Shown here: piece by piece, positions 3,538-51,813 of the stretch
How the letters are laid out: every line of letters starts with the position of its first letter
Position numbering within the stretch: position 1 is the first letter of the stretch
DNA from: Planctomycetota bacterium
Lineage (GTDB): Bacteria; Planctomycetota; GCA-002687715; CAIWVZ01
NCBI GenBank assembly: GCA_044222185.1
Contig: JBGANV010000006.1
Location: forward strand, 1 to 64,000
Direction of reading: 5' to 3'
Length of the DNA stretch: 64,000 nucleotides
Made by a program: the position numbers and the translations under genes
The notes under the pieces: generated by a model
Told to the model about the DNA's origin: nothing
What the model saw: only the letters and a program-made list of their open reading frames with translations
The model's database searches: none

Positions 3538-4041
3538 GCGGGGAGCGCCAGGCTCCAGCCTGGCCGGACGGCGGGGCTCCAGCCCCGCCCTGCGCGTCGA
3601 ACCCGGATCCCTCATCGCCATGCGAGCGGAAGGTCTCCCGAACGACGTGCGGCGTTGTAGAGCAGCCAACTCGGCATTCCCGGCCGGGCCGAGCCCTGCG
3701 ATCCGGCCGCGTGAAACGCTGCGTTCCGACGATCGCGAAAGCGGGGAGCGCCAGGCTCCAGCCTGGCCGGACGGCGGGGCTCCAGCCCCGCCCCGCGCGT
3801 CGAACCCGGATCCCTCATCGGCATGCGAGCGGAAGGTCTCCCGAACGACGTGCGGCGTTGTGGAGGAGCCAACTCGGCATTCCTGGCCGGGCCGAGCCCT
3901 GCGATCCGGCCGCGTGAAACGCTGCGTTCCGACGATCGCGAAAGCGGGGAGCGCCAGGCTCCAGCCTGGCCGGACGGCGGGGCTCCAGCCCCGCCCCGCG
4001 CGTCGAACCCGGATCCCTCATCGGCATGCGAGCGGAAGGTC
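3538..4041. repeat. tandem array of family-A palindromic element, 203-bp unit x about 2.5 copies (unit starts 3538, 3741, 3944)
   Basis: Near-identical units. Each begins GCGGGGAGCGCCAGGCTCCAGCCTGGCCGGACGGCGGGGCTCCAGCCCCGCC, which forms two hairpins (CCAGGCT-CC-AGCCTGG and GGGGCT-CC-AGCCCC). The array ends in the palindrome GGAAGGTCcgtcgatcGACCTTCC. Confidence 0.85.
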
Positions 4042-4060
4042 CGTCGATCGACCTTCCGCG

Positions 4061-4300
4061 ATGCAGCGGTCGGCCGACGTCGTTGCGATGGTCGGGTTCG
4101 CTTCGTCCGCGACCACGCAGCCAGAAAGCGATCCCATCGACCTTGCGCTCGTGGCGGGGGCGATCGAATCGCGCATCGCATCCGACGGGCGTGTCGGCGG
4201 CCCCGTGTCGTGCGACGAGACGTTCGAGAGCGATCCGGAGTTGTGGTGCCTCCTCGCGCTGCGCCGCATCGCGCCGACGGGCGCCGAGCACGCGGCGAGA
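4061..4300 (+). pseudogene. 3' gene remnant paralogous to the C-terminal part of CDS 5683..6993
   Basis: The translation …VVAMVGFASSATTQPESDPIDLALVAGAIESRIASDGRVGGPVSCDETFESDPELWCLLALRRIAPTGAEHAARL aligns at about 50% identity with …VRAMVGLALSAATERVVDPADLAKLQASIESEITSDGRVTGPVFRGEMFSGEPEMWCLLALSRMEGRTSARTARL. There is no N-terminal part; it begins right after the repeat array. Confidence 0.5.
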
Positions 4301-4579: not shown

Positions 4580-5627
4580 CATGATGCGAGCGGCACAACT
4601 CATCTTGTTCGTCTCGATCGCGGTTTCAGCGCGCGTCGCCGCGCAATCACCGTGCATCTGGGATCTGGCCGCGGATTGGAGCACGACGGCCAATCCGTCG
4701 GGCCCGTGGTCTTATGAAGCGGGCGGCGTGCCGTTCGCCACGTTCCAACCGAATTGGGTCGCGTGCAGCAACTCGTTCACGCCGAACCAGGGCGGATGGG
4801 CGGCGGCCAACTGCAACTTCGGACACATCCCCGTGGCGTTCCGGCTCTCGAGCATCGCGAACTTCCCGCTCGACATCGGTCAGGGCGAGGTCGGCGTTCA
4901 TTCCTGGGACGGGTTCAACGGTCCCCCTGGCTACTCGCCCGTGTCGATCACGTGGACGAGTCCCATCGCTGGCGTGATCGACGTCGACGGCAGCGCGTGG
5001 CTTGCGCGAACCATCGGACGGAGCGTCGCGTTCCTGCTGACGGTCAACGGCTCGCCGGCGGCGTCCGCGTCGCTCGTGAGCGGCGGGCCGTTCACGCGCG
5101 CGACCCCGTACTCGTTCGCGTCGTCGGGCGTCAGCGTCGTCCCGGGGTCGCAGGTGCGCATGCAATTCGTGACGACGTCGGCGGCCGGAGACTTCGTCGG
5201 CATGCGACTCACGATCCGCACGCAGAGCTGCACGATCGTTCCGACGACGACCTTCATCCCGCTCGCGACGGGAGGCGCGCAGACGCTGCTGTTGAATCCG
5301 GGGCCTTCGTTCGGAGGATCGACGTACCTCGTCGCGGGCACGCTCAGCGGCACGTCGCCCGGGATTCCGGTCGGCCCGTTCGTGGTTCCCCTGAACCCGG
5401 ACTCGTACTTCCTCTTCACCGTGGGCAACCCGAACACGCCACCGCTCGTGGGAAGCCTCGGAGTGCTGAGCCCGTCAGGGCAGGCCACCGCGCAGGTGGT
5501 GATCCCGCCGGGTACGCCGCCGGTGCTTGCCGGGCTGACGGCATTCCACGCCTATGCCGTGATCAATCCCGCGTCGTCGGCCGTGGTCTACGTCAGTGGA
5601 CCTGCGCCGCTGACGCTCGTTCCGTGA
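4580..5627 (+). CDS. secreted hypothetical protein
   Basis: ATG at 4580 is preceded by a GGAG-like site. Signal peptide MMRAAQLILFVSIAVSARVAAQ. The protein is rich in Gly/Ser/Thr/Pro, as is common in extracellular proteins. The ORF-track 5' extension from 4026 is repeat/non-coding sequence. Confidence 0.65.
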
Positions 5628-5682: not shown

Positions 5683-6993
5683 GTGCCCGTGATGAGAATC
5701 TGCCCCGGACTCTCCGTCGCGCTCGTCGCGCTCGTCGCGGGAAGTGCGACGTCGCGCGCGCAGTCGCCCGAGTCTCGCGGCGTCGACACGCGTCCGACGT
5801 CGAGACCGTCGGTACCGATGATCCTCCTGCGGCAGCAATCGGGGCTGATGGGAGGAGGTTCCTACTCGCTTCGTGTCTTCGACGACGGCCTCGTGAAGTA
5901 CAGCGGCGACGAACGCGCGCTCATCCGACGCGCCGAGGCGCGCCTCGACCGCGCAGACCTCGACCAGGTTCGTCGCCTCGCAAGCCAGGTCACCGATTCC
6001 TACACCAAGCTCGTCGGAACGTGCCCGGCCTGGCTCACGGTGGAAGCCACCGACGCGTCGGGCACGACGCGGACCATGCTCCACCCACGCGGCGGGGGAG
6101 AGGCGGGCCGGATCGCGAAGGAACTCCATGCCGTCGCGCGGACGGAGCGCTGGATGGCCGGAGACGGATATCTCGGCTGGCTCTCCGCGCACCAGGAGGA
6201 TGACGGGTCGTTCAGCTCGTCGGCGTTTCAAGAACGGTGTCGAGGCGGAGGCCGGCCATGTGCGGGTACCGGTCAGCCTGGTCAGGACGTCGCGGTCACG
6301 GCGCTCGCTGCCATCGCGTTCGTCTCTCATGGATCGGGATCGACGAATCCGAGGTTGCTGGCGGCGCAGCGATGGCTCGGTCGCCGCGTCTCCGGGATTC
6401 TGAAAACGGAGCCGCTCGACGTTCGGGCGATGGTCGGGCTCGCGCTGTCGGCGGCCACGGAGCGCGTGGTCGATCCCGCGGATCTCGCGAAGTTGCAGGC
6501 GTCCATCGAATCCGAGATCACGAGCGACGGCCGCGTGACCGGGCCGGTCTTTCGAGGCGAGATGTTCTCGGGTGAGCCCGAGATGTGGTGCCTGCTCGCA
6601 CTCTCCAGGATGGAAGGGCGCACGAGCGCGCGCACCGCACGACTCGAAGGACTCGGCCAACGGATCTGCGTCGGCATGCCGAAGGACGTCGAGCCGGAAC
6701 CCGCGGGGCACGACGAGATCCTGGCGGTCCTCCGGGGGCCGCGCCTCAGTCCGCCGGCGTATCTCTATCTCGCGAACCTGGCCACGTGGTCCGATCTGGG
6801 CTTCGTGCGCACGGCGAAGATCCGAAGCCAGCCCGCGGCCATGGTCGACGCTGCAGGCTGTGAGTGGGGCAGCTTCGAGCCGCGAGGGGACTGGGGCGCG
6901 CACTACGGCCGCGTCGGCACGACCGCGCTCGTCGTCATCGGCGCAGCCGTCGCGCAGTGGTCGACTCCGCTCGCCATGTTCCGCGTGCGGTAA
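5683..6993 (+). CDS. secreted hypothetical protein (paralog family with the 4061..4300 remnant; possible alpha-alpha toroid/PSO-like repeats)
   Basis: 436-aa ORF. Signal peptide MPVMRICPGLSVALVALVAGSATSRAQS. Motifs include …DGSFSSSAFQ…, …ITSDGRVTGPVF… and EMWCLLALSRM. Stop TAA at 6991-6993 directly abuts a family-A repeat. Confidence 0.65.
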   Translation: MPVMRICPGLSVALVALVAGSATSRAQSPESRGVDTRPTSRPSVPMILLRQQSGLMGGGSYSLRVFDDGLVKYSGDERALIRRAEARLDRADLDQVRRLASQVTDSYTKLVGTCPAWLTVEATDASGTTRTMLHPRGGGEAGRIAKELHAVARTERWMAGDGYLGWLSAHQEDDGSFSSSAFQERCRGGGRPCAGTGQPGQDVAVTALAAIAFVSHGSGSTNPRLLAAQRWLGRRVSGILKTEPLDVRAMVGLALSAATERVVDPADLAKLQASIESEITSDGRVTGPVFRGEMFSGEPEMWCLLALSRMEGRTSARTARLEGLGQRICVGMPKDVEPEPAGHDEILAVLRGPRLSPPAYLYLANLATWSDLGFVRTAKIRSQPAAMVDAAGCEWGSFEPRGDWGAHYGRVGTTALVVIGAAVAQWSTPLAMFRVR

Positions 6994-7185
6994 GCGGGAG
7001 CGCCAGGCTCCGCCTGGCTGGACGGCGGGGCTCCAGCCCCGCCACGTGCGTTGGAGCGCATTCCTCATCGGCATGCGAGCGGAGGGTCCGCCGATCGAGG
7101 TGCGGCGTTGGGGAGCGGCCACTCGGCATCTCCGGCAGGGCAGAGCCTTGCCGTCCGGCCGCGTGAAACGCGGTGCTTCGCGTCG
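6994..7185. repeat. single copy of family-A palindromic element between convergent genes
   Basis: GCGGGAGCGCCAGGCTCCGCCTGGCTGGACGGCGGGGCTCCAGCCCCGCC… followed by the same CATCGGCATGCGAGCGGA…GCGTGAAACGC tail seen in the 3538-4041 array. Confidence 0.75.
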
Positions 7186-7189
7186 GCGA

Positions 7190-8056
7190 TCATCCCTTCG
7201 CGCGGATGAACAGCAGGCAGTTGCCGTCGGCGCGCGACGCCGAGGACTGCACGCTCGCCATGAGCAGCTTGCCGTCGTCCGCGGAGACGGTGAACTCGAG
7301 CGTGTTCACGAGACGCGCAGGAGGGATCAGCGAAGGGTTGGTCGGCTGACTCTCCGTCGCCGACGCGAAGCGCTCGATGCGGCACGAGATGCCGAGGCGT
7401 CGCGTCGTCCCCTTGGCGTTGTCGGGAGAGACGCCGAAATCCATCACGGCTTCCTGGAAGCCGCCGAAGGTCTGAGCCCCAGACCGGTCCGTCTGCGTCA
7501 TGGGAATCTGCACCGCTTGCCGGACCTTCCACGGCTTGCCGTCATCCGCGGTGAGCGAGAGCTTCACGATCTCCGTGACGCTGCCCTTGCCGGCCGCATC
7601 GCGAACCTTCGCGAGCACGGCGTCAGCCTCGGTGGGATCGATCACTCCCGTCGACGTGCGTGGGAGTTGAAGTGATCCCTCCGCGCCGGGCGCGAGCATG
7701 AACAGGACGACTTCGTACGCCACGGGCTTGCGCGTCGCTGCGACCTTGCCGTGCGTGGCGGCGACGTCGAGCAGCGCGACGGCCCGCTGCACCGTCGCGA
7801 TCGCCGCGTCATCGCCAGCGACGATGATCGAGTTCGTGCGCGGATCCGCCAGGAGCGTCACGGATCGCCGGTCCTTCTCCCCGAGGAGCTGATGCACCGC
7901 CGGAACCATTTCGTCCGCGACCGCGTACTCGAGCCGCAGCACTTCCGTCTTGCGCGCCCGTGGCTTCTCCACGACAGGTGTCTCGTCCTGCGCAGCCATC
8001 GGTGGAACAGCCGCGAGGAGCATCAGCAAAACCAACGATGTTCGGAATGAGGTCAT
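7190..8056 (-). CDS. periplasmic protein with secretin-N (GspD N1-like) domain; no secretin C-domain
   Basis: Signal peptide MTSFRTSLVLLMLLAAVPPMAAQ. Segment VLRLEYAVADEMVPAVHQLLGEKDRRSVTLLADPRTNSIIVAGDDAAIATVQRAVALLD matches the secretin_N pattern (xLxY…DxRTNSLIV…LD). Confidence 0.55.
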   Translation of the reverse strand: MTSFRTSLVLLMLLAAVPPMAAQDETPVVEKPRARKTEVLRLEYAVADEMVPAVHQLLGEKDRRSVTLLADPRTNSIIVAGDDAAIATVQRAVALLDVAATHGKVAATRKPVAYEVVLFMLAPGAEGSLQLPRTSTGVIDPTEADAVLAKVRDAAGKGSVTEIVKLSLTADDGKPWKVRQAVQIPMTQTDRSGAQTFGGFQEAVMDFGVSPDNAKGTTRRLGISCRIERFASATESQPTNPSLIPPARLVNTLEFTVSADDGKLLMASVQSSASRADGNCLLFIRAKG

Positions 8057-8088
8057 GATCGTTTCTCCTGTCGGCGCGCTCGCCGAGG

Positions 8089-10563
8089 TCACGTTCGAAC
8101 CGGCGTTCCGGGCCCGGGAATGGGGACGCGGGCGTAACCCAGCGTATTCCGCCGGCAGGTCCCATGTCCGCGCGCGAGCCAATTGAAACGGGTTCCGGAT
8201 CGGGAACCCGACCCACGACGGCGGCTCGGTCGGGTCGCGGTAGGCGAACGACAGGTGATTCGCCGTCGCGAGGTCGGCGGGGCGTCTGGTGAGCAGGGGT
8301 GGGGGCTGAACCTCGGTCGTCGCGCGCGGAGCGCCAGGTCCACCGCCGCCTCGGCGGGGACTGGCCGGATCGCCGCGCGTCTCGCGCGGGCCAACTGACG
8401 TGGATTGGGGTTCGTTGCGAGATCACTTCTGTCCGCATGATCGTCGATTGGCTCGGTGCACGTCCACGCACTCCGGACCGGACGCCTCGGCTGCGCCTCG
8501 GTCGTCCGGCGATCCTGCCGCTCGTCCTCGCCCCGCTTCGCGGCGCTGCGGTTCGAGCGGCGCTCCGTGCGGCCCCGCGCGGCGATCGCGCTCGGCTCGC
8601 CCACTTCGATTCCGCGACACAGGTCCGGAATGGCGTCGACCGCGAGAATCCCCAGGTTCGCCACGACGCGCGCCGCCCGGGAACGAACCTTCGGCGATGG
8701 CGCCGTGAGCATGCGCCGGACTGCCGGCAGGGCTACGGCCGCCTCGGCGCCCCAGCGGTGCAGCCACGCGAGGATGATGGCTGCGTCGGCCTCGGTGGGC
8801 GACGCGGCGAGGCAGCGCGCGAGTTCCGAGGGCGTCGGTGCCCACGTCATCGGGAGATCCTCGATCATGTCATCCAGGGTCCGTCGCCAATCGCGGTCGA
8901 AGAGCTGACCGCGAGATTCGAGTACCTCGAGGAGCGACCGCGGGTCAGCGCCGGCCTTTGCGACGGCGATGAGGATCGCGCAGAAGCGACCATCGCCGTC
9001 CAGTCGAATCCGGCGGGCAGCCCGGAGAAGGGCGTCGACGGCCGGTCGCAGGCCGGCACGCGCCGCGAGGATGGCGTCCACGACTTCGGGTGCATCGTCG
9101 CCGCTGTCCGCATCGAGTGCTTCGGCAAGTCGCGCGACGACGCCTTCGGGCACGGGGTTCAGCGTGGCCAGCTTGCACAGGGCCCGCAGGCGCTCTTTTG
9201 GAGTCGGGCCCCAGTTGGCGTGTGCCTCCAGCATGGGTCTCACGATGGCTCCACTCGGATCCACGTGTGTCACGACTGTCAGGAGATTGAGCCTCAGTTG
9301 GGGATCGGCGCGGTCGTCGAGCAACGCGATGAGCCTCGGAAGGGCCACGCGGGCGGCTTCCCCCTGTCGGTAGAGCACCGTAAGCCAGTCGTTCAGCGTG
9401 CGGAATTCGTCGCACCAGGTCTCGTCCGGCTTCAGCCGCGTGCGCGCCAGCGCTGCGGTATCGGCCACCTCCGGCAGGAATTCCGCGATCGCCTCCGCGA
9501 GGCCCGGGGCCCGAATCAACTCGTCGCTCACCTCGGAGCCGAGGGCGATGCGGATCTGGCGTTGCACGTCGGAGGCAGCGGACCGATACCACCGGATGAT
9601 CGCCGGGCCGGAGACGCGTCCCGTGGGGTCGGCGCGCAGCAACACCGTCACGACCGCTTCTCGCCCGAATGCGTCCGTCGCAGTGGGCGCGATCGCTTCG
9701 ATTGCGGCGACGATCGACGACGGGTTCGCGCCCACGGCGGCCAAGGCCATGACGAGCACGTTCGCGGTGTTGGCGCGCTCGAAGGTGAAGCGCCCTCTCG
9801 CCAACGCCCGAAGCAACGCCGGAGCGCAGGCGCTCCCCTTGGGACCCAATGCCGCGGCCAGTCGAGCGGCGACCTTCGATTTCGAGTCATCGGCATCGTC
9901 GATCAATGGGATGAGACGAGGGACGAGAGCCGCGCCGCTGGCGTCGATCGCGGCGATGGCTTCGAGGGCGGCCGTGCGTGTCGCGAAGTCTGGCCAGGTC
10001 GTTCGACGAGTGATCGCCAAGAGCGCGGGCCTGGCAGTCGGTCCCAGCCAGTGCAGGATCCGTACGGCATCGGCAGCTTCGGGCTCATCGTTGGTCCGGT
10101 CGAGGGCTGCGGCGAGGGCTGCGACGAAGAGCGACGCGTTGTCGCCGACCGCGGCGCCGACGGCCGCACGGCTTGCGGCGGATGCGGCGTTCGCGTCGAG
10201 CACCGTCACCGCCGCATCGTCGGCCACGGCATCGACCACGTGGCGGATTCCGTGGATCGCGGCCCGACGCACCGTGGGCACGGGATCGGACGCCAGCCGC
10301 AGAAGGTCTGGCAGTCCCGGAACGGCGTGCGCGTCGAACGTCGCGATGTCGATCGCCACGCGCTCGCGCTCCGCGGCATCGGCGGCGGAAGACGCACGCC
10401 CAAGCGTTCTCAGCCGCTCAGCCGGTGATGGCGGAGGTCGCGTGTCGATCTGAGCGGGGACGAGTGATGCCGCCAGGCCCACGAGGCCGATGGCCATGAG
10501 CATCGATCGACGCGTCGAGCGGGCAACGATCGCGAACGCATCACGCGAATCCGAGTTGCGCAT
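8089..10563 (-). CDS. HEAT-repeat (PBS-lyase-like) protein; C-terminal about 170 aa of the ORF is translated family-B repeat (no in-frame stop until 8089)
   Basis: N-terminal signal/TM MLMAIGLVGLAASLVPAQ. Repeated …PDLLRLASDPVPTVRRAAIHGI… HEAT-like units. The real protein probably ends near 8600-8700. The tail RTERRSNRSAAKRGEDERQDRRTTEAQPRRPV is the same repeat-derived peptide seen in the antisense ORF 10796..12541. Confidence 0.6.
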   Translation of the reverse strand: MRNSDSRDAFAIVARSTRRSMLMAIGLVGLAASLVPAQIDTRPPPSPAERLRTLGRASSAADAAERERVAIDIATFDAHAVPGLPDLLRLASDPVPTVRRAAIHGIRHVVDAVADDAAVTVLDANAASAASRAAVGAAVGDNASLFVAALAAALDRTNDEPEAADAVRILHWLGPTARPALLAITRRTTWPDFATRTAALEAIAAIDASGAALVPRLIPLIDDADDSKSKVAARLAAALGPKGSACAPALLRALARGRFTFERANTANVLVMALAAVGANPSSIVAAIEAIAPTATDAFGREAVVTVLLRADPTGRVSGPAIIRWYRSAASDVQRQIRIALGSEVSDELIRAPGLAEAIAEFLPEVADTAALARTRLKPDETWCDEFRTLNDWLTVLYRQGEAARVALPRLIALLDDRADPQLRLNLLTVVTHVDPSGAIVRPMLEAHANWGPTPKERLRALCKLATLNPVPEGVVARLAEALDADSGDDAPEVVDAILAARAGLRPAVDALLRAARRIRLDGDGRFCAILIAVAKAGADPRSLLEVLESRGQLFDRDWRRTLDDMIEDLPMTWAPTPSELARCLAASPTEADAAIILAWLHRWGAEAAVALPAVRRMLTAPSPKVRSRAARVVANLGILAVDAIPDLCRGIEVGEPSAIAARGRTERRSNRSAAKRGEDERQDRRTTEAQPRRPVRSAWTCTEPIDDHADRSDLATNPNPRQLARARRAAIRPVPAEAAVDLALRARRPRFSPHPCSPDAPPTSRRRITCRSPTATRPSRRRGSGSRSGTRFNWLARGHGTCRRNTLGYARVPIPGPGTPVRT
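8325..8577. repeat. family-B repeat element, copy 1 (about 250 bp)
   Basis: GGAGCGCCAGGTCCACCGCCGCCTCGGCGGGGACTGGCCGGATCGCCGCGCGTC…ATGATCGTCGATTGGCTCGGTGCACGTCCACGC…GCGGTTCGAGCGGCGCTCCGTGCGGC is nearly identical to the copies at 10697-10942 and 10995-11236. Confidence 0.75.
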
Positions 10564-10696
10564 CGGAACTCAGGACTCGGCTCGCAGTCACCCTATTCCC
10601 GACGCAGCGAGATCTGCGTTCGTGGGCGACCCTACTGGAATGGGTTTCGGATCGTGAACTCGACCCACGACGGCGGCTCGGTGGGGTCGCGGTCTC

Positions 10697-11236
10697 GGAG
10701 CGCCATGTCCACCGCCGTCACGGCGGGGACTGGCCAGATCGCCGCGCGTCCCGCGCGGGCCAACCGGCGAGGAGTGGGGTTCAGTGCGAGATCACCTACG
10801 TCCGCATGATCGTCGATTGGCACGGTGCACGTCCACGCCCTCCGGACCGGACGCCTCGGCTGCGCCTCGGTCGTCCGGCGATCCTGCCGCTCGTCCTCGC
10901 CCCGCTTCGCGGCGCTGCGGTTCGAGCGGCGCTCCGTGCGGCGTCGCGATTGCGAGATCGAAAGGCGAGTGCCATCTCGACCGGGTCGCGGCTTCGGAGC
11001 GCCACGTCCACCGCCGTCTCGGCGGGGACTGGCCGGATCGCCGCGCGTCCCGCGCGGGCCAACCGGCGAGGAGTGGGGTTCAGTGCGAGATCACCTACGT
11101 CCGCATGATCGTCGATTGGCTCGGTGCACGTCCACGCCCTCCGGACCGGACGCCTCGGCTGCGCCTCGGTCGTCCGGCGATCCTGCCGCTCGTCCTCGCC
11201 CCGCTTCGCGGCGCTGCGGTTCGAGCGGCGCTCCGG
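10697..11236. repeat. family-B repeat element, two tandem copies (10697-10942 and 10995-11236)
   Basis: Direct repeats in the same orientation as copy 1 at 8325-8577. They account for the spurious 5' extension (10784-11467) of the FG-GAP ORF. Confidence 0.8.
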
Positions 11237-11467
11237 TCGGCCTGCGTCTCCTGCTGCGCCGCCAAAGATTCGCCCAGGAGCGCGATCAGCAGGACGGCGC
11301 GTGTCGTGGAGATCGTCATGTCGACCGCCACGATATCCGATGCGCGTGACGACGGGTGCGAACGATATGATGCCGCCTCGCGTCGCGGGCGGCCGGCGGA
11401 GCTGATCGCGGCGGGCGAACGGTCGACGGAGATTCCGGTGATGGAGCGAACGGCTTCGGTGACCCGC

Positions 11468-14419
11468 ATGCGGATCCTCTGCATTCGAGGACTCTTGGCG
11501 GCGATGATTTCGCCCGCGCTGGTTCAGGCTCAGGCGGGATACACCCTCGCCTCCGTGAGCAACCCGTCGGTCCTCAATCTGGATTTTGGGACGAGCGTGG
11601 CGTTCGTCGGAGACGTCGAAGGCGACGGCGTCGAGGACTACGCGGTCGGCGATCGTTACGCGCGCGCCGGCGGATCGGCGAGCGCGGGCGCGATCCACAT
11701 CATCAGCGGTGCGACGGGAGTGACGATCCGCGTGCACGCGGGCGTCGCGGGCGAAGGGCTCGGGGCCTCGGTCGCGGGGCTGGGCGACATCGACCACGAT
11801 GGCGTGCCCGACTACATCGGCGGGGCCCCGGCCGCGAGCCCGGGTGGCCGCGCCTACGCGTGGTCCGGTGCGACGGGCGCGCTGATCCACACGTTCAGCG
11901 GGACTGCGACGGTGGCGTGCATCGTCCCGTTTCCGTGCGCGCCGATCTCGGAGCAGTTGGGCGCGTCCGTCGCCGGGCCGGGAGATCTGAACGGAGACGG
12001 AACGCCGGACATCCTGATCGGAAGCCCGACACTCACGTTGTCGAATGCCGCCATCATGACGGGCGGAGCCCGCGTTTTTTCCGGTGCGAGCGGGGCAGCG
12101 CTTTTCGGCATCAACGGCGGCATCTCGTGGGCCGTGCTTGGCACCTCCGTCGCCGGCGGCGGCGATCTGAATCATGACGGGATCCCGGACATCGTCGTCG
12201 GGATGCCGCGGATTTCGCCGCTGCCGTACGGCAACACGCCGGGGGGCACCGGCTCGATCCACGCCATCGCCGGTGGAACGGGCGCGACGCTCTGGGTCGC
12301 GAGCGGCTCGCAGAGTGACGATCGCTTCGGCACGTCGATCGCGATCGTCGGCGACGTGAACGGGGACGGATCCGACGACGTGGCCGTGGGCGCACCAGGG
12401 TCGAGCCTCGGCGGAGTTCCGACCGTGCGCGTGGTTTCCGGGCAGAACGGGGCGACGCTCTTCAATACGCCAACCCCCGTCGGTGGCGATCGATTCGGCG
12501 CGGCGGTGGCGGCAGCCGGCGATGTCGATGGCGATGGCCATCTCGACGTCCTCGTGGGCGCGCCGCAGGCATTCAGCGGGACCGCGCTGTTCGCCGGCAA
12601 GGTCTACATCCTCAGCGGACTCTCGGGGGCGGTGCTGCGGACATACTCGAGTGCGACGGCTTACGACGCACTCGGGACTTCAGTGGCCGGTTGCCGCTCC
12701 ATCGACGGCGATGGAATCCCCGACGCGTTGATCGCGGCACCGCAAACCGTCGGCGCAGGCGGGCCCGGTCACGTGGAGGTCCGCTCCGGTGCGACGGGCC
12801 TTCCGATCCGCACGCACACGGGCGACCTGGGAATGCTGCGCTCGATCATCACTTCGACGATCGTCGTCGGCGATGTCGACGCAGACGGTCGGCCGGACAT
12901 CGCCGTCGCCATGCAGGACGGAGCGATCGCCGTCATCTCGGGCGCGACCGGGACGGCGATCCGCCGAATCGAGGGCCCACCACTCGCGCCTGGCACCACG
13001 TTCGAACTCGCGCCGCTCGGCGACGTGGATGGTGATGGCGCCGGCGACTTCGCGTCGCTCGCGGTCCTCTCGCTCGGCGGGACCGCGCAGTTGAACGTCG
13101 ATTCCGGCGCCACAGGGATGCCGCTCGCAAGCGTCTCGATCCCACGCTGCGGACTCGATCGAATCTCGCTCGCCGCCATCGCGGACGTGAACGGCGATTC
13201 GCGGAAGGATCTCGTGCTCGGCTTTCCGGCATCACCATCCGTGACGTGCGCGTCGTCAGGGGAGGTGCAGATCCGCTCCGGCGCGACCGGAGCGCTCTTG
13301 CGCTCGATCGCGACGAACCACTCGACCTACGATGGATTCGGGTTCGCGGTGAGCGGCGCCGGCGACCTGGATGGTGATGGAATCACGGACGTGCTCGTCG
13401 GCGCTCCGGCCACGCCGTTCCTCGGCGCGTTTGCAGCGGGCGCCGTCTACGGGTTCTCGACAGCGACGGGCCTGCAGTCGTTCGTCGTGTCAGGCACGTT
13501 GCAGAATCAGACGTTCGGCATCCGCGTGGCGTCGATTGGTGACCTCAACGGTGACGGCATCGCCGAGTTCGCCGCGACGAATCAGTTGAACGTGGCGGGC
13601 ACGTCGCCGGGTTCGGTGGAGGTGTGGTCGCCGCCCGCGGGACTGCTGTTGGCGACGATCGTGAACGCCGTGCCCTCGGAATCCATCGGCCGCGCGATCG
13701 CGGCGGTCGGCGACGCGGACGGAGACGGCGTGCCCGATCTCGCGGTGAGTGCGGGGACTGCGTCCTCCGGCGGAACGACGGCGGCGCGCGTCATCGTCGT
13801 TTCCGGCGCGACGTTCGCGCCCCGTTTCATGGTGCCCGATGTGACGCCCGGAGATCTCTTCGGGTGGACGCTCGCGCCGGCGGGTGACTGGAACGGCGAC
13901 GGCCTTTCCGACGTGATCGGGGGCGTGAGCGCGCTGCCGGGGCAGAGCGCCGTGCGCGTCGTCTCGTTCGCGGGGGTACCAGCCGGGTCGATGGCGGTCG
14001 GCAGCGGCTGCCCGCAGTCGAACGGCGACGTGCCGGTTCTCTCTGCCTTCGGCGGGCAGCCGACTGCGATCACCGGCAACCCGGCGTTCGGATTCGTGGT
14101 GTCGAACGCTCCGCCCGGCGTTCCGGGCGTGCTCGTCGTCGGCGGTTCAATGGCGTCCTGGGGCGGAACGAGCCTCCCACTTTCGCTTTCGAGCGCTGGG
14201 CTTCCCGGTTGCTCTCTCTTCGTGTCTCCGGACGTGCTGATTCCGTTCACGACGTCCACGGGCGTCGCAAGCCACGGATCGAAGTGGCTGTCGCTGCCCG
14301 TGCCGGTCGCACCCTCGCTCGTCGGCGCGCGACTGGCGTTCCAGGCGTACGCCGCCGCATCGACGGCGTCAGCGTTGCCCGGCGCCGTGACCCGCGCCGT
14401 GTCGATCGCGCTGCTCTAA
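11468..14419 (+). CDS. secreted FG-GAP (integrin-alpha-like) repeat protein, about 983 aa
   Basis: Signal peptide MRILCIRGLLAAMISPALVQAQA. More than 12 repeats of …GxSVAxxGDVNGDGxxDxxVGAP… (FG-GAP/VCBS-like). Stop TAA at 14417-14419 is followed immediately by a family-A repeat. Confidence 0.8.
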   Translation: MRILCIRGLLAAMISPALVQAQAGYTLASVSNPSVLNLDFGTSVAFVGDVEGDGVEDYAVGDRYARAGGSASAGAIHIISGATGVTIRVHAGVAGEGLGASVAGLGDIDHDGVPDYIGGAPAASPGGRAYAWSGATGALIHTFSGTATVACIVPFPCAPISEQLGASVAGPGDLNGDGTPDILIGSPTLTLSNAAIMTGGARVFSGASGAALFGINGGISWAVLGTSVAGGGDLNHDGIPDIVVGMPRISPLPYGNTPGGTGSIHAIAGGTGATLWVASGSQSDDRFGTSIAIVGDVNGDGSDDVAVGAPGSSLGGVPTVRVVSGQNGATLFNTPTPVGGDRFGAAVAAAGDVDGDGHLDVLVGAPQAFSGTALFAGKVYILSGLSGAVLRTYSSATAYDALGTSVAGCRSIDGDGIPDALIAAPQTVGAGGPGHVEVRSGATGLPIRTHTGDLGMLRSIITSTIVVGDVDADGRPDIAVAMQDGAIAVISGATGTAIRRIEGPPLAPGTTFELAPLGDVDGDGAGDFASLAVLSLGGTAQLNVDSGATGMPLASVSIPRCGLDRISLAAIADVNGDSRKDLVLGFPASPSVTCASSGEVQIRSGATGALLRSIATNHSTYDGFGFAVSGAGDLDGDGITDVLVGAPATPFLGAFAAGAVYGFSTATGLQSFVVSGTLQNQTFGIRVASIGDLNGDGIAEFAATNQLNVAGTSPGSVEVWSPPAGLLLATIVNAVPSESIGRAIAAVGDADGDGVPDLAVSAGTASSGGTTAARVIVVSGATFAPRFMVPDVTPGDLFGWTLAPAGDWNGDGLSDVIGGVSALPGQSAVRVVSFAGVPAGSMAVGSGCPQSNGDVPVLSAFGGQPTAITGNPAFGFVVSNAPPGVPGVLVVGGSMASWGGTSLPLSLSSAGLPGCSLFVSPDVLIPFTTSTGVASHGSKWLSLPVPVAPSLVGARLAFQAYAAASTASALPGAVTRAVSIALL

Positions 14420-14422
14420 TAC

Positions 14423-14840
14423 GAGGAGCGCCAGGCTCCGCCTGGCCGGACGGGCGGGGCTCCGCCCCGCCCCGAGCGTGGAGAGGTCCTCCGCACCTGA
14501 CGGCTTCATCCGACGACGATCGCCTCCGCCGCATCGGACGCGACACGTCGCCGCGCGTCGATCGCGTCACCGCCGATTCCGGCGCCCCGTGCCCCGCGAA
14601 GCCAACGGGGATTCGTCGACGGCGTATTCGAGGAGCGCCAGGCTCCGCCTGGCCGGACGGGCGGGGCTCCGCCCCGCCCCGAGCGTGGAGAGGTCCTCCG
14701 CACCTGACGGCTCCATCCGACGGCGATCGCCTCCGCCGCATCGGACGCGACACGTCGCCGCGCGTCGATCGCGCTCATCGCCGATTCCGGCAGGGCGGAG
14801 CCCTGCCATCCGGCCGGGTGGAACCCGGCGCTCCGGGCTG
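14423..14840. repeat. family-A palindromic element, two tandem copies (207-bp unit)
   Basis: GAGGAGCGCCAGGCTCCGCCTGGCCGGACGGGCGGGGCTCCGCCCCGCCCCGAGCGTGGAGAGGTCCTCCGCACCTGACGGCT… occurs twice, starting at 14423 and 14630. Confidence 0.8.
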
Positions 14841-17478: not shown

Positions 17479-18317
17479 GGCCGCTCCTCTCCGAGTGTCA
17501 GTTGCTTCAGCCGCGGTCGCTTCCCGAAGCGTTGCGGATGCTGCACGAGGCCTGGCCCGCGATCCCCGTGGCCGGGTGCACGGACCTCTACGTGGCGATG
17601 AACGCCGGCACGCTCGGCGGCGGGCGCTTCGTCGACATCTGGGGTCTCGACGAGCTGCGGCCGATCCGCGTCGTCGGTGACGTGCTCACGATCGGCGCGT
17701 TGGCCACGTGGTCGCAGATCGCGCGGTCGGCGTCCGTGCGCAAGCGCCTGCCGATCCTCGTGGAGGCGGCGCGCCAGATCGGTGGCGTCCAGATCCAGAA
17801 CCGCGGCACGATCGGCGGCAACGTCGCCAATGCGTCACCCGCGGGCGATGGCTTGCCCGTGCTCGCGGTCGCCGACGCGGTCGTCGTCGTCGCCAGCGAA
17901 GCGCACGAGCGGCGCATCCCGTTCGGTTCGTTCTACACCGGGTATCGCAAGACGGCGCTCCTGCCCGGTGAGCTCATCGTCGCCATCGAGATCCCGCCCG
18001 TGGCGGGCAGGCAGTGGTTCCGCAAGGTCGGGACGCGCGCGGCGCAGGCGATCTCCAAGGTCGTCGTCGCCGGCGTTCGCGGCGCGACGCCGCGCCTCGC
18101 CTTCGGCAGCGTGGCGCCGACCGTGATCCGCGTTCCTCGCACCGAGCAGCACCTCGCCGCCGGTGGATCGCTCGCCGACGCGAAGAAGATCCTCCAGTCG
18201 GAGATCACGCCGATCGACGACGTCCGCTCGACGGCCGCGTACCGCCGAGCGGTTTGCGCGAACCTGCTCGAGCGGTTTTGGATCGAGACGTCGGCGTCGG
18301 CGCCTGGCGCGAGGTAG
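17475..18317 (+). CDS. FAD-binding medium subunit (CoxM/XdhB-type)
   Basis: GTG at 17475 overlaps the upstream TGA. FAD-binding motifs AGCTDLYV and IGGNVANASPAGD. C-terminal domain …EITPIDDVRSTAAYRRAVCANLLERFW…. The gene's 3' end is duplicated at 22608-22770. Confidence 0.85.
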   Translation: MRPLLSECQLLQPRSLPEALRMLHEAWPAIPVAGCTDLYVAMNAGTLGGGRFVDIWGLDELRPIRVVGDVLTIGALATWSQIARSASVRKRLPILVEAARQIGGVQIQNRGTIGGNVANASPAGDGLPVLAVADAVVVVASEAHERRIPFGSFYTGYRKTALLPGELIVAIEIPPVAGRQWFRKVGTRAAQAISKVVVAGVRGATPRLAFGSVAPTVIRVPRTEQHLAAGGSLADAKKILQSEITPIDDVRSTAAYRRAVCANLLERFWIETSASAPGAR

Positions 18318-22497: not shown

Positions 22498-22607
22498 GGA
22501 TGGCCCATCATGCCCGCTCGTGGCCGATCGGGGTCAGGCGGTTTGGGGGTTCTTGGTTTTCATCGAGCCGGCGGGGGCGTCACGCGGCTAATCCGGCGCG
22601 TCCACGC

Positions 22608-22770
22608 TGGCGGCGCAGGCGATCTCCAAGGTCGTCGTCGCCGGCGTTCGCGGCGCGACGCCGCGGAGATCACGCCGATCGACGACGTCCGCTCGACGGC
22701 CGCGTACCGCCGAGCGGTTTGCGCGAACCTGCTCGAGCGGTTTTGGATCGAGACGTCGGCGTCCGCCGCC
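22608..22770. repeat. duplicated fragment of the FAD-subunit gene 3' end (copy of 18037-18300 with an internal deletion of about 105 bp)
   Basis: GGCGCAGGCGATCTCCAAGGTCGTCGTCGCCGGCGTTCGCGGCGCGACGCCGC|GGAGATCACGCCGATCGACGACGTCCGCTCGACGGCCGCGTACCGCCGAGCGGTTTGCGCGAACCTGCTCGAGCGGTTTTGGATCGAGACGTCGGCGTC is identical to 18041-18093 plus 18200-18300. Confidence 0.85.
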
Positions 22771-22802
22771 GGAGCGGTGCGACCGTCACACGGACGATCC
22801 CA

Positions 22803-49899: not shown

Positions 49900-51813
49900 A
49901 TGCGTACGCGCTTCGTGCTGGTGGCGCTGGTTCTGGCCGCTTGGGTTTCTGCACAGAGTGCGAACACGTCGCCGGTGGCACCCGCGCAGCCTTCGGGACA
50001 GGGGGCCTCGGCATCACCAGTCACACCCGTGGCGCCGGCGGCGCCCGTTGCACCGGGGACCGTGTCTGGCGTGGGCGCCGGCACATGGTCCGGCGCAGGG
50101 TCCGGCGCAGGGTCCGGCGCAGGGTCCGGCGCAGGGTCCGGCGCAGGGTCCGGCGCAGGGTCCGGCGCAGGGTCCGGCGCAGGGTCCGCGCCAGTTGCGC
50201 CTGGCCCTGGGGTTTCGGAGACGCGACCGGACGCCATCGGCGGAGCGACTGCGCCGGCGACCGGGATCGGCCTCGAGCCCGCGTCCACCACGATCGGCGT
50301 CGGGACGTGGGTCAGGGAGGCGCCCGCGGCGTTGGCGCCGGAGACCGCCGTGGAAGTCGGCGCTGGGCTGTCCGCCATCGAGTTGCCGGCGGAACTCGCC
50401 GACGGCGTCGGCGAGGAGGTCTGTGACGCCATCGAGCAGCTGGTCGATGCGTTGAAGGCGGACGCGCTCTCGAGCGAAGCCACGGAAGCGACGGGAAAGG
50501 ACGAGCGAGCTGCGGTCACGGCGCTGACCGAGTCCATGCGGCGCATCTGGGTGTGGAACGACGAGAGCATCCACGCGGTCGACGGCGAGAGGGTCCTCGT
50601 CGTCACGAAGCAGCCCGACGGCGGCCACACGGGGACCGTCAAGAGCGACGTGTCCGCACTGGAAGACGCCCGTGGCGCCATCGAGCGCGCGACGGAGTCC
50701 GTGAAAGACGGCATCGGCGGCCTGCCGAAAGGCGTCCGAGCGAAGTTCAAGGCGTTCTACGATCGCAAGCGCGCGGAGGTGGCGGCGCACGTGAAGGCTG
50801 CCATCGATCAGTGTCTTTCGAACGTCGCGTCGACGTCGGCCGCCCGGGCCGCGAGAGACCGCGTTCTCAACTCGGCGATTCGCGACTACCAGGTGGCCGT
50901 GCAGCGATCGGTGAAGGCGCGGGCGACCGAACCGGCCGAGAGATCTGCGGGGCCGGGCGCGCGTGATGCCGCGGCCCAGCAACAGGCGGCAGCGGCTCGT
51001 CTCGCCGAGGCGGAACGGGCCCTCGCCGACGCTCGCGCCCGGCTCGAGGCCACCGTGTCCAAGGAAGGTCAGGACCGCGCTCGCGCCCAGGTCGACGGTG
51101 CGTTGAGCGAGAGCATCCGCAAGCGATACCAGTCCGTTCTCGACCTCGCGCGCCAGGAATCGGACCTCACGGAGCAGGTGCGGAGCCGCGACAGCAAGCT
51201 CGCCGAGACGAAGGCTCTGATGGACGCGCTTCGTCTGGCCGAACAGAACGCGCAAGTCGGCCGCGAGGAGACCGAGCGGCGTCTCGTCGAGCTGAAGGAG
51301 CAACGGAAGGTTCTCGACCGCGCGATCGACGAGGCGACGAAGCAGGCGCTGCGCGAGAAGGCTCACCGACTCGAGGCTGAAGCGGCGCGCCGTCGCGCGG
51401 AAGCCGAGGCACGTCGTGCCGAAGAGGAGATGAACCGCGCACAGGAGGCGAAGGCCCGTGCCGAGCGCCAGGCCGACCGACTGGCCAACGGCGGAGCGCA
51501 GTCCTCGGGCACGTCGCCTCGGGGCTCCGGAGTGTCCACGTGGCTCGGCGGCAACGCGACGGCATCGGAGTCGCCAGCGACCCGGCCCTCCATCTCCCGA
51601 GCGGGGGGTGGACTCGGGCAGCGCGGGTCGCAGCCCTACCCGGGCGGTCGGCCGGGCGCGACCGGGATGGGTGGCGCAGCCGGCGGCCAATGGGCGAGCG
51701 ACAGCCTCCTCCGGTCGAACGATGCGGAGATCCAGCAGCTGCGCGCAGAGTTGGATCGCCTGCGCCGCGAGGTCGAGGAGCTTCGCCGCGTGGCGAATCA
51801 ACGCAGCCGCTGA
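49900..51813 (+). CDS. secreted protein with (GAGS)n low-complexity segment and about 350-aa Ala/Arg/Glu-rich coiled-coil C-terminus
   Basis: Signal peptide MRTRFVLVALVLAAWVSAQS. Contains the (GSGA)x8 repeat. C-terminal …AEAERALADARARLEATVSKEGQDRARAQ… is heptad-like. Confidence 0.65.
   Translation: MRTRFVLVALVLAAWVSAQSANTSPVAPAQPSGQGASASPVTPVAPAAPVAPGTVSGVGAGTWSGAGSGAGSGAGSGAGSGAGSGAGSGAGSGAGSAPVAPGPGVSETRPDAIGGATAPATGIGLEPASTTIGVGTWVREAPAALAPETAVEVGAGLSAIELPAELADGVGEEVCDAIEQLVDALKADALSSEATEATGKDERAAVTALTESMRRIWVWNDESIHAVDGERVLVVTKQPDGGHTGTVKSDVSALEDARGAIERATESVKDGIGGLPKGVRAKFKAFYDRKRAEVAAHVKAAIDQCLSNVASTSAARAARDRVLNSAIRDYQVAVQRSVKARATEPAERSAGPGARDAAAQQQAAAARLAEAERALADARARLEATVSKEGQDRARAQVDGALSESIRKRYQSVLDLARQESDLTEQVRSRDSKLAETKALMDALRLAEQNAQVGREETERRLVELKEQRKVLDRAIDEATKQALREKAHRLEAEAARRRAEAEARRAEEEMNRAQEAKARAERQADRLANGGAQSSGTSPRGSGVSTWLGGNATASESPATRPSISRAGGGLGQRGSQPYPGGRPGATGMGGAAGGQWASDSLLRSNDAEIQQLRAELDRLRREVEELRRVANQRSR
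50089..50184 (+). repeat. perfect 12-bp tandem repeat (TCCGGCGCAGGG) x8 inside CDS 49900..51813
   Basis: Eight exact copies encode (SGAG)n. The flanking sequence GTCCGGCGCAGGGTCCGCGCC shows degenerate copies. Confidence 0.9.

Follow-up and report, generated by a model that had tools for sequence, protein, structure and literature searches.

The window, which is the whole 64-kb stretch of DNA that was analyzed, contains three copies of a 241-nt repeat that we call family B. This repeat forms a discrete unit, the two ends of which are shared by the three copies in the window and by a 74%-identical copy elsewhere, and it is not protein-coding. Family B is an uncharacterized but ordinary kind of small repeat element in a GC-rich host chromosome. 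It is best explained, and probably so, as a small non-coding bacterial repeat element of the MITE-like or REP/BIME-like kind.

Copies and boundaries of the family-B repeat

A repeat search placed three direct copies at 8308-8573, 10677-10942, and 10976-11241. Refinement reduced these to cores of exactly 241 nt each (c1, c2, and c3), which are listed here with the features around them.

8089..10563, - strand: HEAT-repeat ORF, 824 aa as publicly annotated; the exact protein is in NCBI
8166..8241, + strand: module L on the left of c1; blastn aligns its 76 nt to 10618-10693 at 84% identity
8242..8326, + strand: segment between module L and the core in c1 only, 83 nt more than in c2 (alignment)
8327..8567, + strand: family-B core c1, 241 nt, within the 3' part of the annotated HEAT ORF, which runs on the opposite strand; inverted-repeat ends at 8327-8335 and 8559-8567
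10618..10693, + strand: left module L of c2, ending 54 nt before the HEAT ATG at 10563
10696..10936, + strand: family-B core c2, 241 nt, in the space from which the HEAT and FG-GAP genes diverge; terminal inverted repeats at 10696-10704 and 10928-10936
10937..10994, + strand: c2-c3 spacer, the last 12 nt of which repeat the end of module L (GGGTCGCGG...)
10995..11235, + strand: family-B core c3, 241 nt, forming a tandem of 299-nt period with c2; terminal inverted repeats at 10995-11003 and 11227-11235

The cores are 93.4% (c1/c2), 94.6% (c1/c3), and 98.3% (c2/c3) identical, with copy-versus-copy E-values of 1e-55 to 1e-63 in nhmmer. This confirms the three near-identical, same-orientation copies described in the first-pass annotation, whose coordinates were off by a few bases only. 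All three lie inside 3 kb in a single orientation, and TRF reported c2 and c3 as an array with a 299-nt period at 10684-11235. Neither nhmmer nor blastn found a fourth copy in the window.

In all three copies a perfect 9-nt inverted repeat, CGGAGCGCC...GGCGCTCCG, forms the two ends of the core, and GC-rich hairpins sit just inside both ends. The right boundary is identical in the three copies despite unrelated right flanks, which have no similarity past 6 nt; the c2-c3 spacer had no significant similarity to the other right flanks. To the left, c1 and c2 have in common the 76-nt module L, which lies outside the core. Within the c1 module the minus strand has a terminator-like hairpin (8210-8189), found in a scan in which the count of terminator-like sites was below shuffle expectation. 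An imperfect direct repeat, CTCGGTCG(GG)TCGCG, flanks the segment present only in c1. We detected no target-site duplication at any of four copies, the three in the window and the homolog described below. The longest words shared between flanks are 4-6 nt, are not adjacent to the element ends, and have a chance frequency of 0.13-0.81. Given the sequence common to c1 and c2 beyond the core, core transposition in this genome is at most conjectural.

A homolog, L005B, was found at 5477-5707 of L005, an unrelated 9.7-kb contig from another genome. It has 74% identity over 241-245 nt and matches positions 78-322 of the c2 query (10695-10939), essentially from inverted repeat to inverted repeat. This is the sole substantial DNA similarity between L005 and the window. 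The homology begins and ends at the same inverted repeats as the window copies, showing that family B is a discrete conserved element and not a by-product of the HEAT gene. L005B differs from the window copies by two 7-nt indels and has its own inverted repeat of 30 nt at 73%. Blocks of 11-16 nt, such as GTGCGAGATCACC and CCGGACGCCTCGGCT, are fully conserved between the window and L005B, and the least conserved block (12/30) falls in the right-hand part of the alignment. L005B is located in an intergenic gap between convergent genes unrelated to those of the window, and the orientation of the element relative to its neighbor genes differs between the two. A mini-version consisting of the two termini only is present at L005 1573-1621.

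We also looked for copies more widely. In genome and metagenome collections, a census that rested on a single 20-mer from the core (a pattern of the inverted-repeat ends was judged the better choice) gave only chance matches inside unrelated coding genes. The plasmid collection gave no match. Viral contigs were searched with two patterns, one of which gave two chance coding matches and the other nothing. A six-frame protein proxy search found no annotated ORF over any copy besides the HEAT protein itself. Among the 34 predicted proteins of the window, Pfam identified no transposase, RAYT, integrase, or reverse transcriptase.

Reading frames across the repeat

The HEAT ORF has no stop before 8089 and passes through c1. 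Its HEAT domain matches stop at aa 653, and residues ~665-824 are encoded by c1, module L, and spacer. The Arg-rich tail that the first-pass annotation had noted is real: it is about 160 aa long, contains 22.5% arginine and 11.9% proline, and is included in the public annotation. Codon score along the ORF drops to the non-coding level inside the repeat. With one copy in its reading frame, the HEAT ORF runs on for ~160 codons to the next chance stop, and the tail is probably a meaningless translated repeat. We were unable to reconstruct the proposed recent insertion into the 3' end of this gene, as in silico deletion of the element with ten boundary choices restored no nearby stop and there is no target-site duplication. 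On the other side of the repeats, the FG-GAP ORF (10784-14419) does carry the false upstream extension suggested for it, and the public FG-GAP start, at 11318, is outside the repeat. The proteins of the window are singletons in the protein collection.

The family-B element is not under protein-coding constraint. Differences are spread evenly over codon positions both between c1 and c2 (10/10/11) and between L005B and c2 (14/14/11). Codon scores in the repeat range from -0.15 to +0.15 versus a coding mean of 0.45, and none of the tested frames had a Pfam match. The ORF over L005B is spurious, with GC1/2/3 flat at 0.72/0.73/0.75 and a codon score of -0.16.

These results bear on the idea that the repeat truly encodes the C-terminal tail of the HEAT protein, or that of a paralog since lost, with c2 and c3 as remnants of deleted gene copies. 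All three copies keep one minus-strand frame open, which in c2 reaches its stop right at the end of module L. Third-position GC in this frame reaches ~0.82-0.90 in parts of c1 and c2, and the public annotation carries the 824-aa HEAT protein as such. Nonetheless, we regard a coding origin as very improbable and rejected a protein-coding reading of the open frame, given substitutions without third-position bias, codon scores within the non-coding range, silent Pfam searches, and, in L005, a homolog with 7-nt indels that is overlain by a spurious ORF beside unrelated genes. The first-pass annotation had reasoned that orthologous HEAT genes ending in a conserved tail encoded by this sequence would make the repeat coding-derived. 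We found no ortholog of the HEAT protein, and an exhaustive search yielded no HEAT protein that ends in a tail of this kind. The earlier preference for an element over HEAT-derived coding sequence is also supported by a homolog with the same ends in non-coding DNA of another genome with unrelated neighbors.

Alternative origins and likeness to known repeats

We also weighed two further alternatives. The copies could be ordinary intergenic DNA duplicated around the HEAT gene by replication slippage or unequal crossing-over, with no mobility and no element. Such an origin would account for three copies within 3 kb in one orientation, the 76-nt flank that c1 and c2 share outside the inverted repeats, the 299-nt tandem of c2 and c3, and the lack of a target-site duplication; the window also contains another local duplication, a gene fragment at 18033-18311 that is copied at 22604-22776. 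We consider it doubtful that this is the whole explanation since a homolog with the same ends occurs in a different gene context in another genome where the rest of the contig is unalignable at the DNA level, three copies whose right flanks are unrelated stop at the same right boundary, and inverted-repeat ends are present.

Alternatively, family B could be a structured non-coding RNA gene or a cluster of cis-regulatory RNA or DNA sites conserved by function, for example to serve neighboring minus-strand genes as a leader or terminator module. The 74% conservation between genomes that have no other alignable DNA, the several fully conserved 11-16-nt blocks, and the terminator-like hairpin in the left module of c1 are consistent with this. 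Across the four sequences, pairing is kept in 93% of predicted pair cells, and three pairs within the element are compensatory. For the terminal helices the figure is 96-98%, and helix 3 and helix 11 each have one compensatory change. By contrast, the central helices break in the L005 homolog and predicted folding gives no stability beyond that of shuffled sequence (z of -1.28 and -0.58). No Rfam family matched the repeats, whether the cutoff was the gathering threshold or E<=5. The element is oriented differently toward its neighbor genes in the window and in L005, an RNA gene would not typically occur in tandem and partial copies, and terminator-like sites are fewer than expected from shuffles. 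We therefore think an RNA or regulatory function unlikely.

The explanation that we favor is a small repeat element. Family B would be a 241-nt non-coding DNA repeat with short terminal inverted repeats (CGGAGCGCC / GGCGCTCCG) and a GC-rich hairpin inside each end. It may have spread in the past by means of a trans-acting transposase or recombinase that recognized these ends and is not encoded in the window. The local triplet would then have arisen by duplication or unequal recombination, which fits both the 76-nt flank common to c1 and c2 and the tandem of c2 and c3. Effects on neighbors would be incidental: the HEAT protein would gain a translated tail, hairpins might act as terminators, and the repeats would offer a substrate through which the HEAT gene could be deleted or duplicated.

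Bacterial MITEs, such as the Correia elements of Neisseria, are small and non-coding, have terminal inverted repeats, and are found between genes or sometimes over gene ends. Family B resembles them in its small non-coding unit, its terminal inverted repeats (9 nt perfect, and 30 nt at 73% in the homolog), its location between genes or at a gene end, and its capacity to alter neighboring ORFs and supply hairpins. It differs in that the perfect inverted repeat is just 9 nt, no target-site duplication was detected, and there are only three clustered copies in 64 kb plus one in L005. We know of no parent IS of family B. REP/BIME elements and REPINs are mobilized by RAYT (Y1 HUH) transposases and reach high copy number. 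In a partial likeness to these, family B has conserved GC-rich imperfect palindromes at its ends in inverted orientation and showed no target duplications. Tandem arrangement is another likeness, seen in c2/c3 and in the arrays of a neighboring repeat, family A, which is placed just after stop codons as REP/BIME elements are. However, the family-B unit is far longer than a REP doublet, its two end hairpins differ in sequence, it has no conserved GTAG-type head, and there is no RAYT gene in the window. Rickettsia palindromic elements (RPEs) insert into protein-coding genes and are translated. The c1 copy is similar in being a palindromic repeat in an annotated ORF that adds residues to the predicted protein, but it sits at the 3' end where it abolishes the expected stop and is not an in-frame internal insertion. 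The HEAT tail, by comparison, is a predicted sequence. A diversity-generating retroelement was rejected on the basis of mixed substitutions (T>C, T>A, and G>A being commonest), no A bias on either strand, and no reverse transcriptase in the window. An integron cassette (attC) was rejected because there is no integrase in the window and no RYYYAAC/GTTRRRY pair at the ends of the 241-nt repeat.

Family A occurs at 3541-4138, 6995-7180, and 14421-14835 of the same window. The first-pass annotation had raised the possibility that the two families are related through two short blocks. One of these, GGAGCGCCAGG, heads both families; the other, GGCGGGGACTGGCCGGA, is found in only the three family-B copies even when 3 mismatches are allowed. 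Family A carries parts of GGCGGGGACTGGCCGGA, namely CTGGCCGGA and GGCGGGG, in reversed order. In addition to the GGAGCGCCAGG head, the best family-A copy has a GGCGCTCCG tail, and the two families have the same end layout of motif, hairpin, CCGGA, and second hairpin. Both form tandem arrays and are extragenic. The rest of the element is not alignable between them, with a best z of about 5 against a mononucleotide null, which is weakly above shuffles. Unit length is 203-207 nt in family A versus 241 nt in family B, and family A, unlike family B, is absent from L005. The possible kinship of the two families is based on the common terminal motif and similar hairpin layout. The shared GGAGCGCC ends hint at a common mobilizing enzyme. 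A search of the literature found no paper on the family-A head sequence.

Exchange between copies and consequences for neighboring genes

All 16 variable sites among c1-c3 are within core positions 11-144, and the remaining 97 nt, on the right-hand side, are identical. This distribution indicates gene conversion or sequence exchange among the three local copies. Recombination between copies, as proposed in the first-pass annotation, is plausible and has left a trace in the confined variable sites and in an identical run of 103 nt common to c1 and c2. Between genomes, it is this identical right-hand stretch of 97 nt that is conserved least.

With this arrangement, the HEAT gene might be excised or amplified in the manner of a cassette. 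In a stronger form, c1-HEAT-c2 would be a composite mobile or amplifiable cassette, in which an orphan gene between direct copies of a TIR element is moved by the transposase of the element acting at the outermost ends or is looped out or amplified by recombination; otherwise, the 241-nt unit would represent a structured module of RNA or DNA that is new and has been conserved in different genera. We consider these possibilities quite unlikely.

None of the implications of family B would surprise a specialist. Identical direct repeats of ~100 nt on both sides of an orphan gene are a ready substrate for its loss or amplification. In another genome, the same element underlies P0005, a 244-aa "protein" that is a spurious ORF, and gene calling in GC-rich genomes would benefit if such repeats were masked.

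Family-B copies and their boundaries

A repeat search of the window found three direct copies of family B, each about 266 nt long (8308-8573, 10677-10942 and 10976-11241), and comparison of copy with copy by nhmmer gave E = 1e-55 to 1e-63. Tandem Repeats Finder reported the second and third as an array with a 299-nt period (10684-11235). The three sets of coordinates proposed in the first-pass annotation are therefore right to within a few bases. No fourth copy was found in the 64 kb by nhmmer or word-7 blastn. The GC content of the window is uniform at about 69%, and the similarity among the copies is far beyond chance.

Each copy has a core of exactly 241 nt from inverted end to inverted end. 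Core identity is 93.4% between c1 and c2, 94.6% between c1 and c3, and 98.3% between c2 and c3. All three cores start with CGGAGCGCC and end with its reverse complement, GGCGCTCCG.

Inverted-repeat ends of the family-B cores
c1: 8327-8335, CGGAGCGCC; 8559-8567, GGCGCTCCG
c2: 10696-10704, CGGAGCGCC; 10928-10936, GGCGCTCCG
c3: 10995-11003, CGGAGCGCC; 11227-11235, GGCGCTCCG

Each inverted repeat is followed on its inner side by a GC-rich hairpin, GCCAGGTCC-ACCGCCG...CGGCGG-GGACTGGC at the left end and GCCGCTCG...CGAGCGGC at the right. To the right of the core, c1 and c2 share six further bases (TGCGGC), beyond which flank comparison showed the right flanks of the three copies to be unrelated. A 76-nt module left of the core is common to c1 and c2 at 84% identity (8166-8241 and 10618-10693); c3 retains only its last 12 nt. 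In c1, module and core are set apart by an extra 83 nt (8242-8326) absent from the other copies. An imperfect direct repeat of 15-17 nt, CTCGGTCG(GG)TCGCG, brackets this segment, which has its own hairpin (GGCGAA...TTCGCC) and could have arisen by slippage or as a second small insertion.

The reading frame through c1 and a homologue in another genome

The order on the minus strand is c3, c2, the HEAT-repeat ORF (10563 to 8089), c1 and a gene with a Secretin_N domain (8056 to 7190); the FG-GAP gene is on the plus strand, in divergent orientation. The last HEAT/Arm Pfam match lies at residue 653 of the HEAT protein and c1 starts at about residue 665. No stop interrupts the frame through c1 before 8089, which lengthens the ORF by a tail of 160 residues that is 22.5% Arg and 11.9% Pro, compared with 10.4% and 6.6% in the body. 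The first-pass annotation was correct that there is no stop before 8089 and that the tail, which it put at about 170 aa, is Arg-rich. The exact 824-aa product is deposited in NCBI on a 408,107-bp contig. As also proposed earlier, the upstream extension of the FG-GAP ORF is false: the plus-strand ORF from 10784 is spurious, the deposited protein has its start outside c3, at 11318, and a signal peptide first appears around 11444-11468. A short minus-strand ORF (11095-11319) has a signal-peptide-like N-terminus (MTISTTRAVLLIALLGESLAAQQ) resembling the start of the Secretin_N protein and continues into c3, where it is in another frame and ends at 11095. Its codon score is marginal (0.11-0.16) and it may be the remnant of a gene start.

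We considered whether the repeat is itself protein-coding. All three copies share one minus-strand frame free of stops, with raised third-position GC; in c2 it is closed by a stop where the left module ends. Codon usage was scored with a log-odds model trained on 14 long window ORFs with typical coding GC1/GC2/GC3, for which coding windows averaged 0.45 and non-coding frames -0.40. The HEAT body scored 0.2-0.47 and the repeat -0.15 to +0.15. Differences between c1 and c2 are spread evenly over codon positions 1/2/3 (10/10/11), no tested frame of family B matched Pfam, no ortholog of the HEAT protein was found, and a six-frame concatenated query found no other annotated protein overlapping a family-B copy. 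On these results we rejected the protein-coding reading: protein-coding selection does not act on the repeat.

Searched exhaustively with phmmer, the c2 peptide matched the HEAT protein itself and also an Arg-rich protein of 244 aa, P0005 (E = 1e-5), encoded on L005, a 9.7-kb Logan contig of SRR28480390 (GC 69.1%). At the DNA level, L005 5477-5707 is 73-75% identical to the core over 241-245 nt. The alignment spans c2 10695-10939, essentially inverted repeat to inverted repeat; no other substantial DNA similarity links L005 to the window. P0005 has flat GC1/2/3 (0.72/0.73/0.75), a negative codon score and an overlap with a BON-domain gene, so it is a spurious ORF, and the element therefore lies in the space separating two convergent genes. 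The homologue lacks 7 nt at two places compared with the window copies, its substitutions are distributed 14/14/11 over codon positions, and its ends form a 30-nt inverted repeat (73%). L005 also carries a mini-version of about 50 nt with only the two B termini (1573-1621) and, adjoining the full element, partial copies of the second hairpin GCGCGTCTCGCGCGGGC (5789-5830 and 5450-5465). Thus, the 241-nt core is a discrete non-coding unit that is conserved and occurs among different neighbouring genes. The first-pass reading of an element rather than a coding tail is supported by the non-coding tests together with this homologue, and the test that it set for refutation, orthologous HEAT genes ending with a conserved tail encoded by this sequence, had a negative outcome.

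Exchange between copies and terminal hairpins

All 16 sites that vary among the window copies fall within core positions 11-144, and positions 145-241 are identical in all three; the chance of such clustering, assuming uniform sites, is about (144/241)^16, or ~3e-4. In the cross-genome alignment both indels and the least conserved block (12/30) fall in the right-hand part, so the identity of this part within the window reflects recent homogenisation (gene conversion) and not constraint. A 103-nt identical run is common to c1 and c2, one on either side of the HEAT gene. Identity of this length is ample for RecA-dependent deletion or duplication. Copies c1 and c2 would have the potential to delete or duplicate the HEAT gene in this way, and the gene as a cassette between copies is a possibility. 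A 1012-bp contig from another sample (L004, Logan SRR14932590) is about 99% identical to window 7150-8200 over the Secretin_N gene and 72 nt upstream, diverges abruptly at about 8128, near the c1 left module, and at its other end stops within family A. These breaks at both repeat families suggest strain-level variation or repeat-induced assembly breaks.

The repeats had no Rfam match at the gathering threshold or at E<=5, and the minimum free energy of c2 was not better than shuffles on either strand (z = -1.28 and -0.58). Four sequences were aligned, of which three are nearly identical, and 93% of the predicted pair cells were paired; the terminal helices were 96-98% paired with one compensatory change each, and the central helices were disrupted in the L005 homologue. 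This small alignment supports conservation of the terminal hairpins and nothing more. The sole terminator-like hairpin within 6900-11600 is at 8189-8210 on the minus strand (CGGGTTCCCGATCCGGAACCCG then TTTCAATT), within the annotated HEAT ORF and 100 nt ahead of its stop. If functional, it would end the transcript before the HEAT stop codon.

Possible kinship with family A and origin of the element

Family-A units are 203-207 nt long, with inverted ends of roughly 48 nt and two hairpins per end. Each occurrence starts a few to about 40 bases past the stop codon of a plus-strand gene.

Family-A copies in the window
3541-4138: tandem array of 2.5-3 units
6995-7180: single copy
14421-14835: tandem of 2 units

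The block GGAGCGCCAGG heads family A as it does family B, and the best family-A copy closes with GGCGCTCCG (14827-14835). As read from the sequence, both ends of family A follow one plan: GGAGCGCC, a hairpin GCCAGGC/GCCTGGC, CCGGA and a second hairpin, GGCGGGGC/GCCCCGCC. The left end of family B has the same plan and the same GGAGCGCC head, with a longer first hairpin. The overall alignment of A with B is weakly above shuffles (best z about 5, mononucleotide null), and a 28-nt end-to-end match scored within the null range. Kinship of the two families, resting on their ends, is plausible. Of the blocks earlier listed as common to both, the head GGAGCGCCAGG is shared and the 17-mer GGCGGGGACTGGCCGGA is specific to B.

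Two other repeats were seen in the window. The 3' end of a molybdopterin-dehydrogenase FAD-binding subunit gene (18033-18311) has a 96-97% identical copy 4.5 kb away (22604-22776). This copy has a 106-nt internal deletion and is a duplicated gene fragment or a pseudogene. A 12-nt tandem repeat, CCGGCGCAGGGT (50078-50188; 9.2 copies, 97% matches), lies within a predicted 594-aa ORF (50029-51813) without a Pfam match.

Family B probably has a mobile origin, to judge by its defined ends, its inverted repeats and its presence at an unrelated site in another genome. No target-site duplication was detectable at any of the four copies (three in the window and one on L005), which counts against membership of the classical MITEs. 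Pfam scans of 34 predicted window proteins detected no transposase, integrase, reverse transcriptase or RAYT; a core 20-mer gave only chance matches in coding genes across genome and metagenome collections, and viral contigs and plasmids yielded no genuine match. A recent insertion at the HEAT 3' end, as first suggested, was not borne out, as in silico removal with ten boundary choices restored no nearby stop. Because c1 and c2 share sequence beyond the core, duplication is a likelier source of the local copies than independent insertion. Family B is best described as an uncharacterised MITE/REP-like hairpin repeat, locally triplicated and homogenised, with one copy read through by the HEAT ORF.
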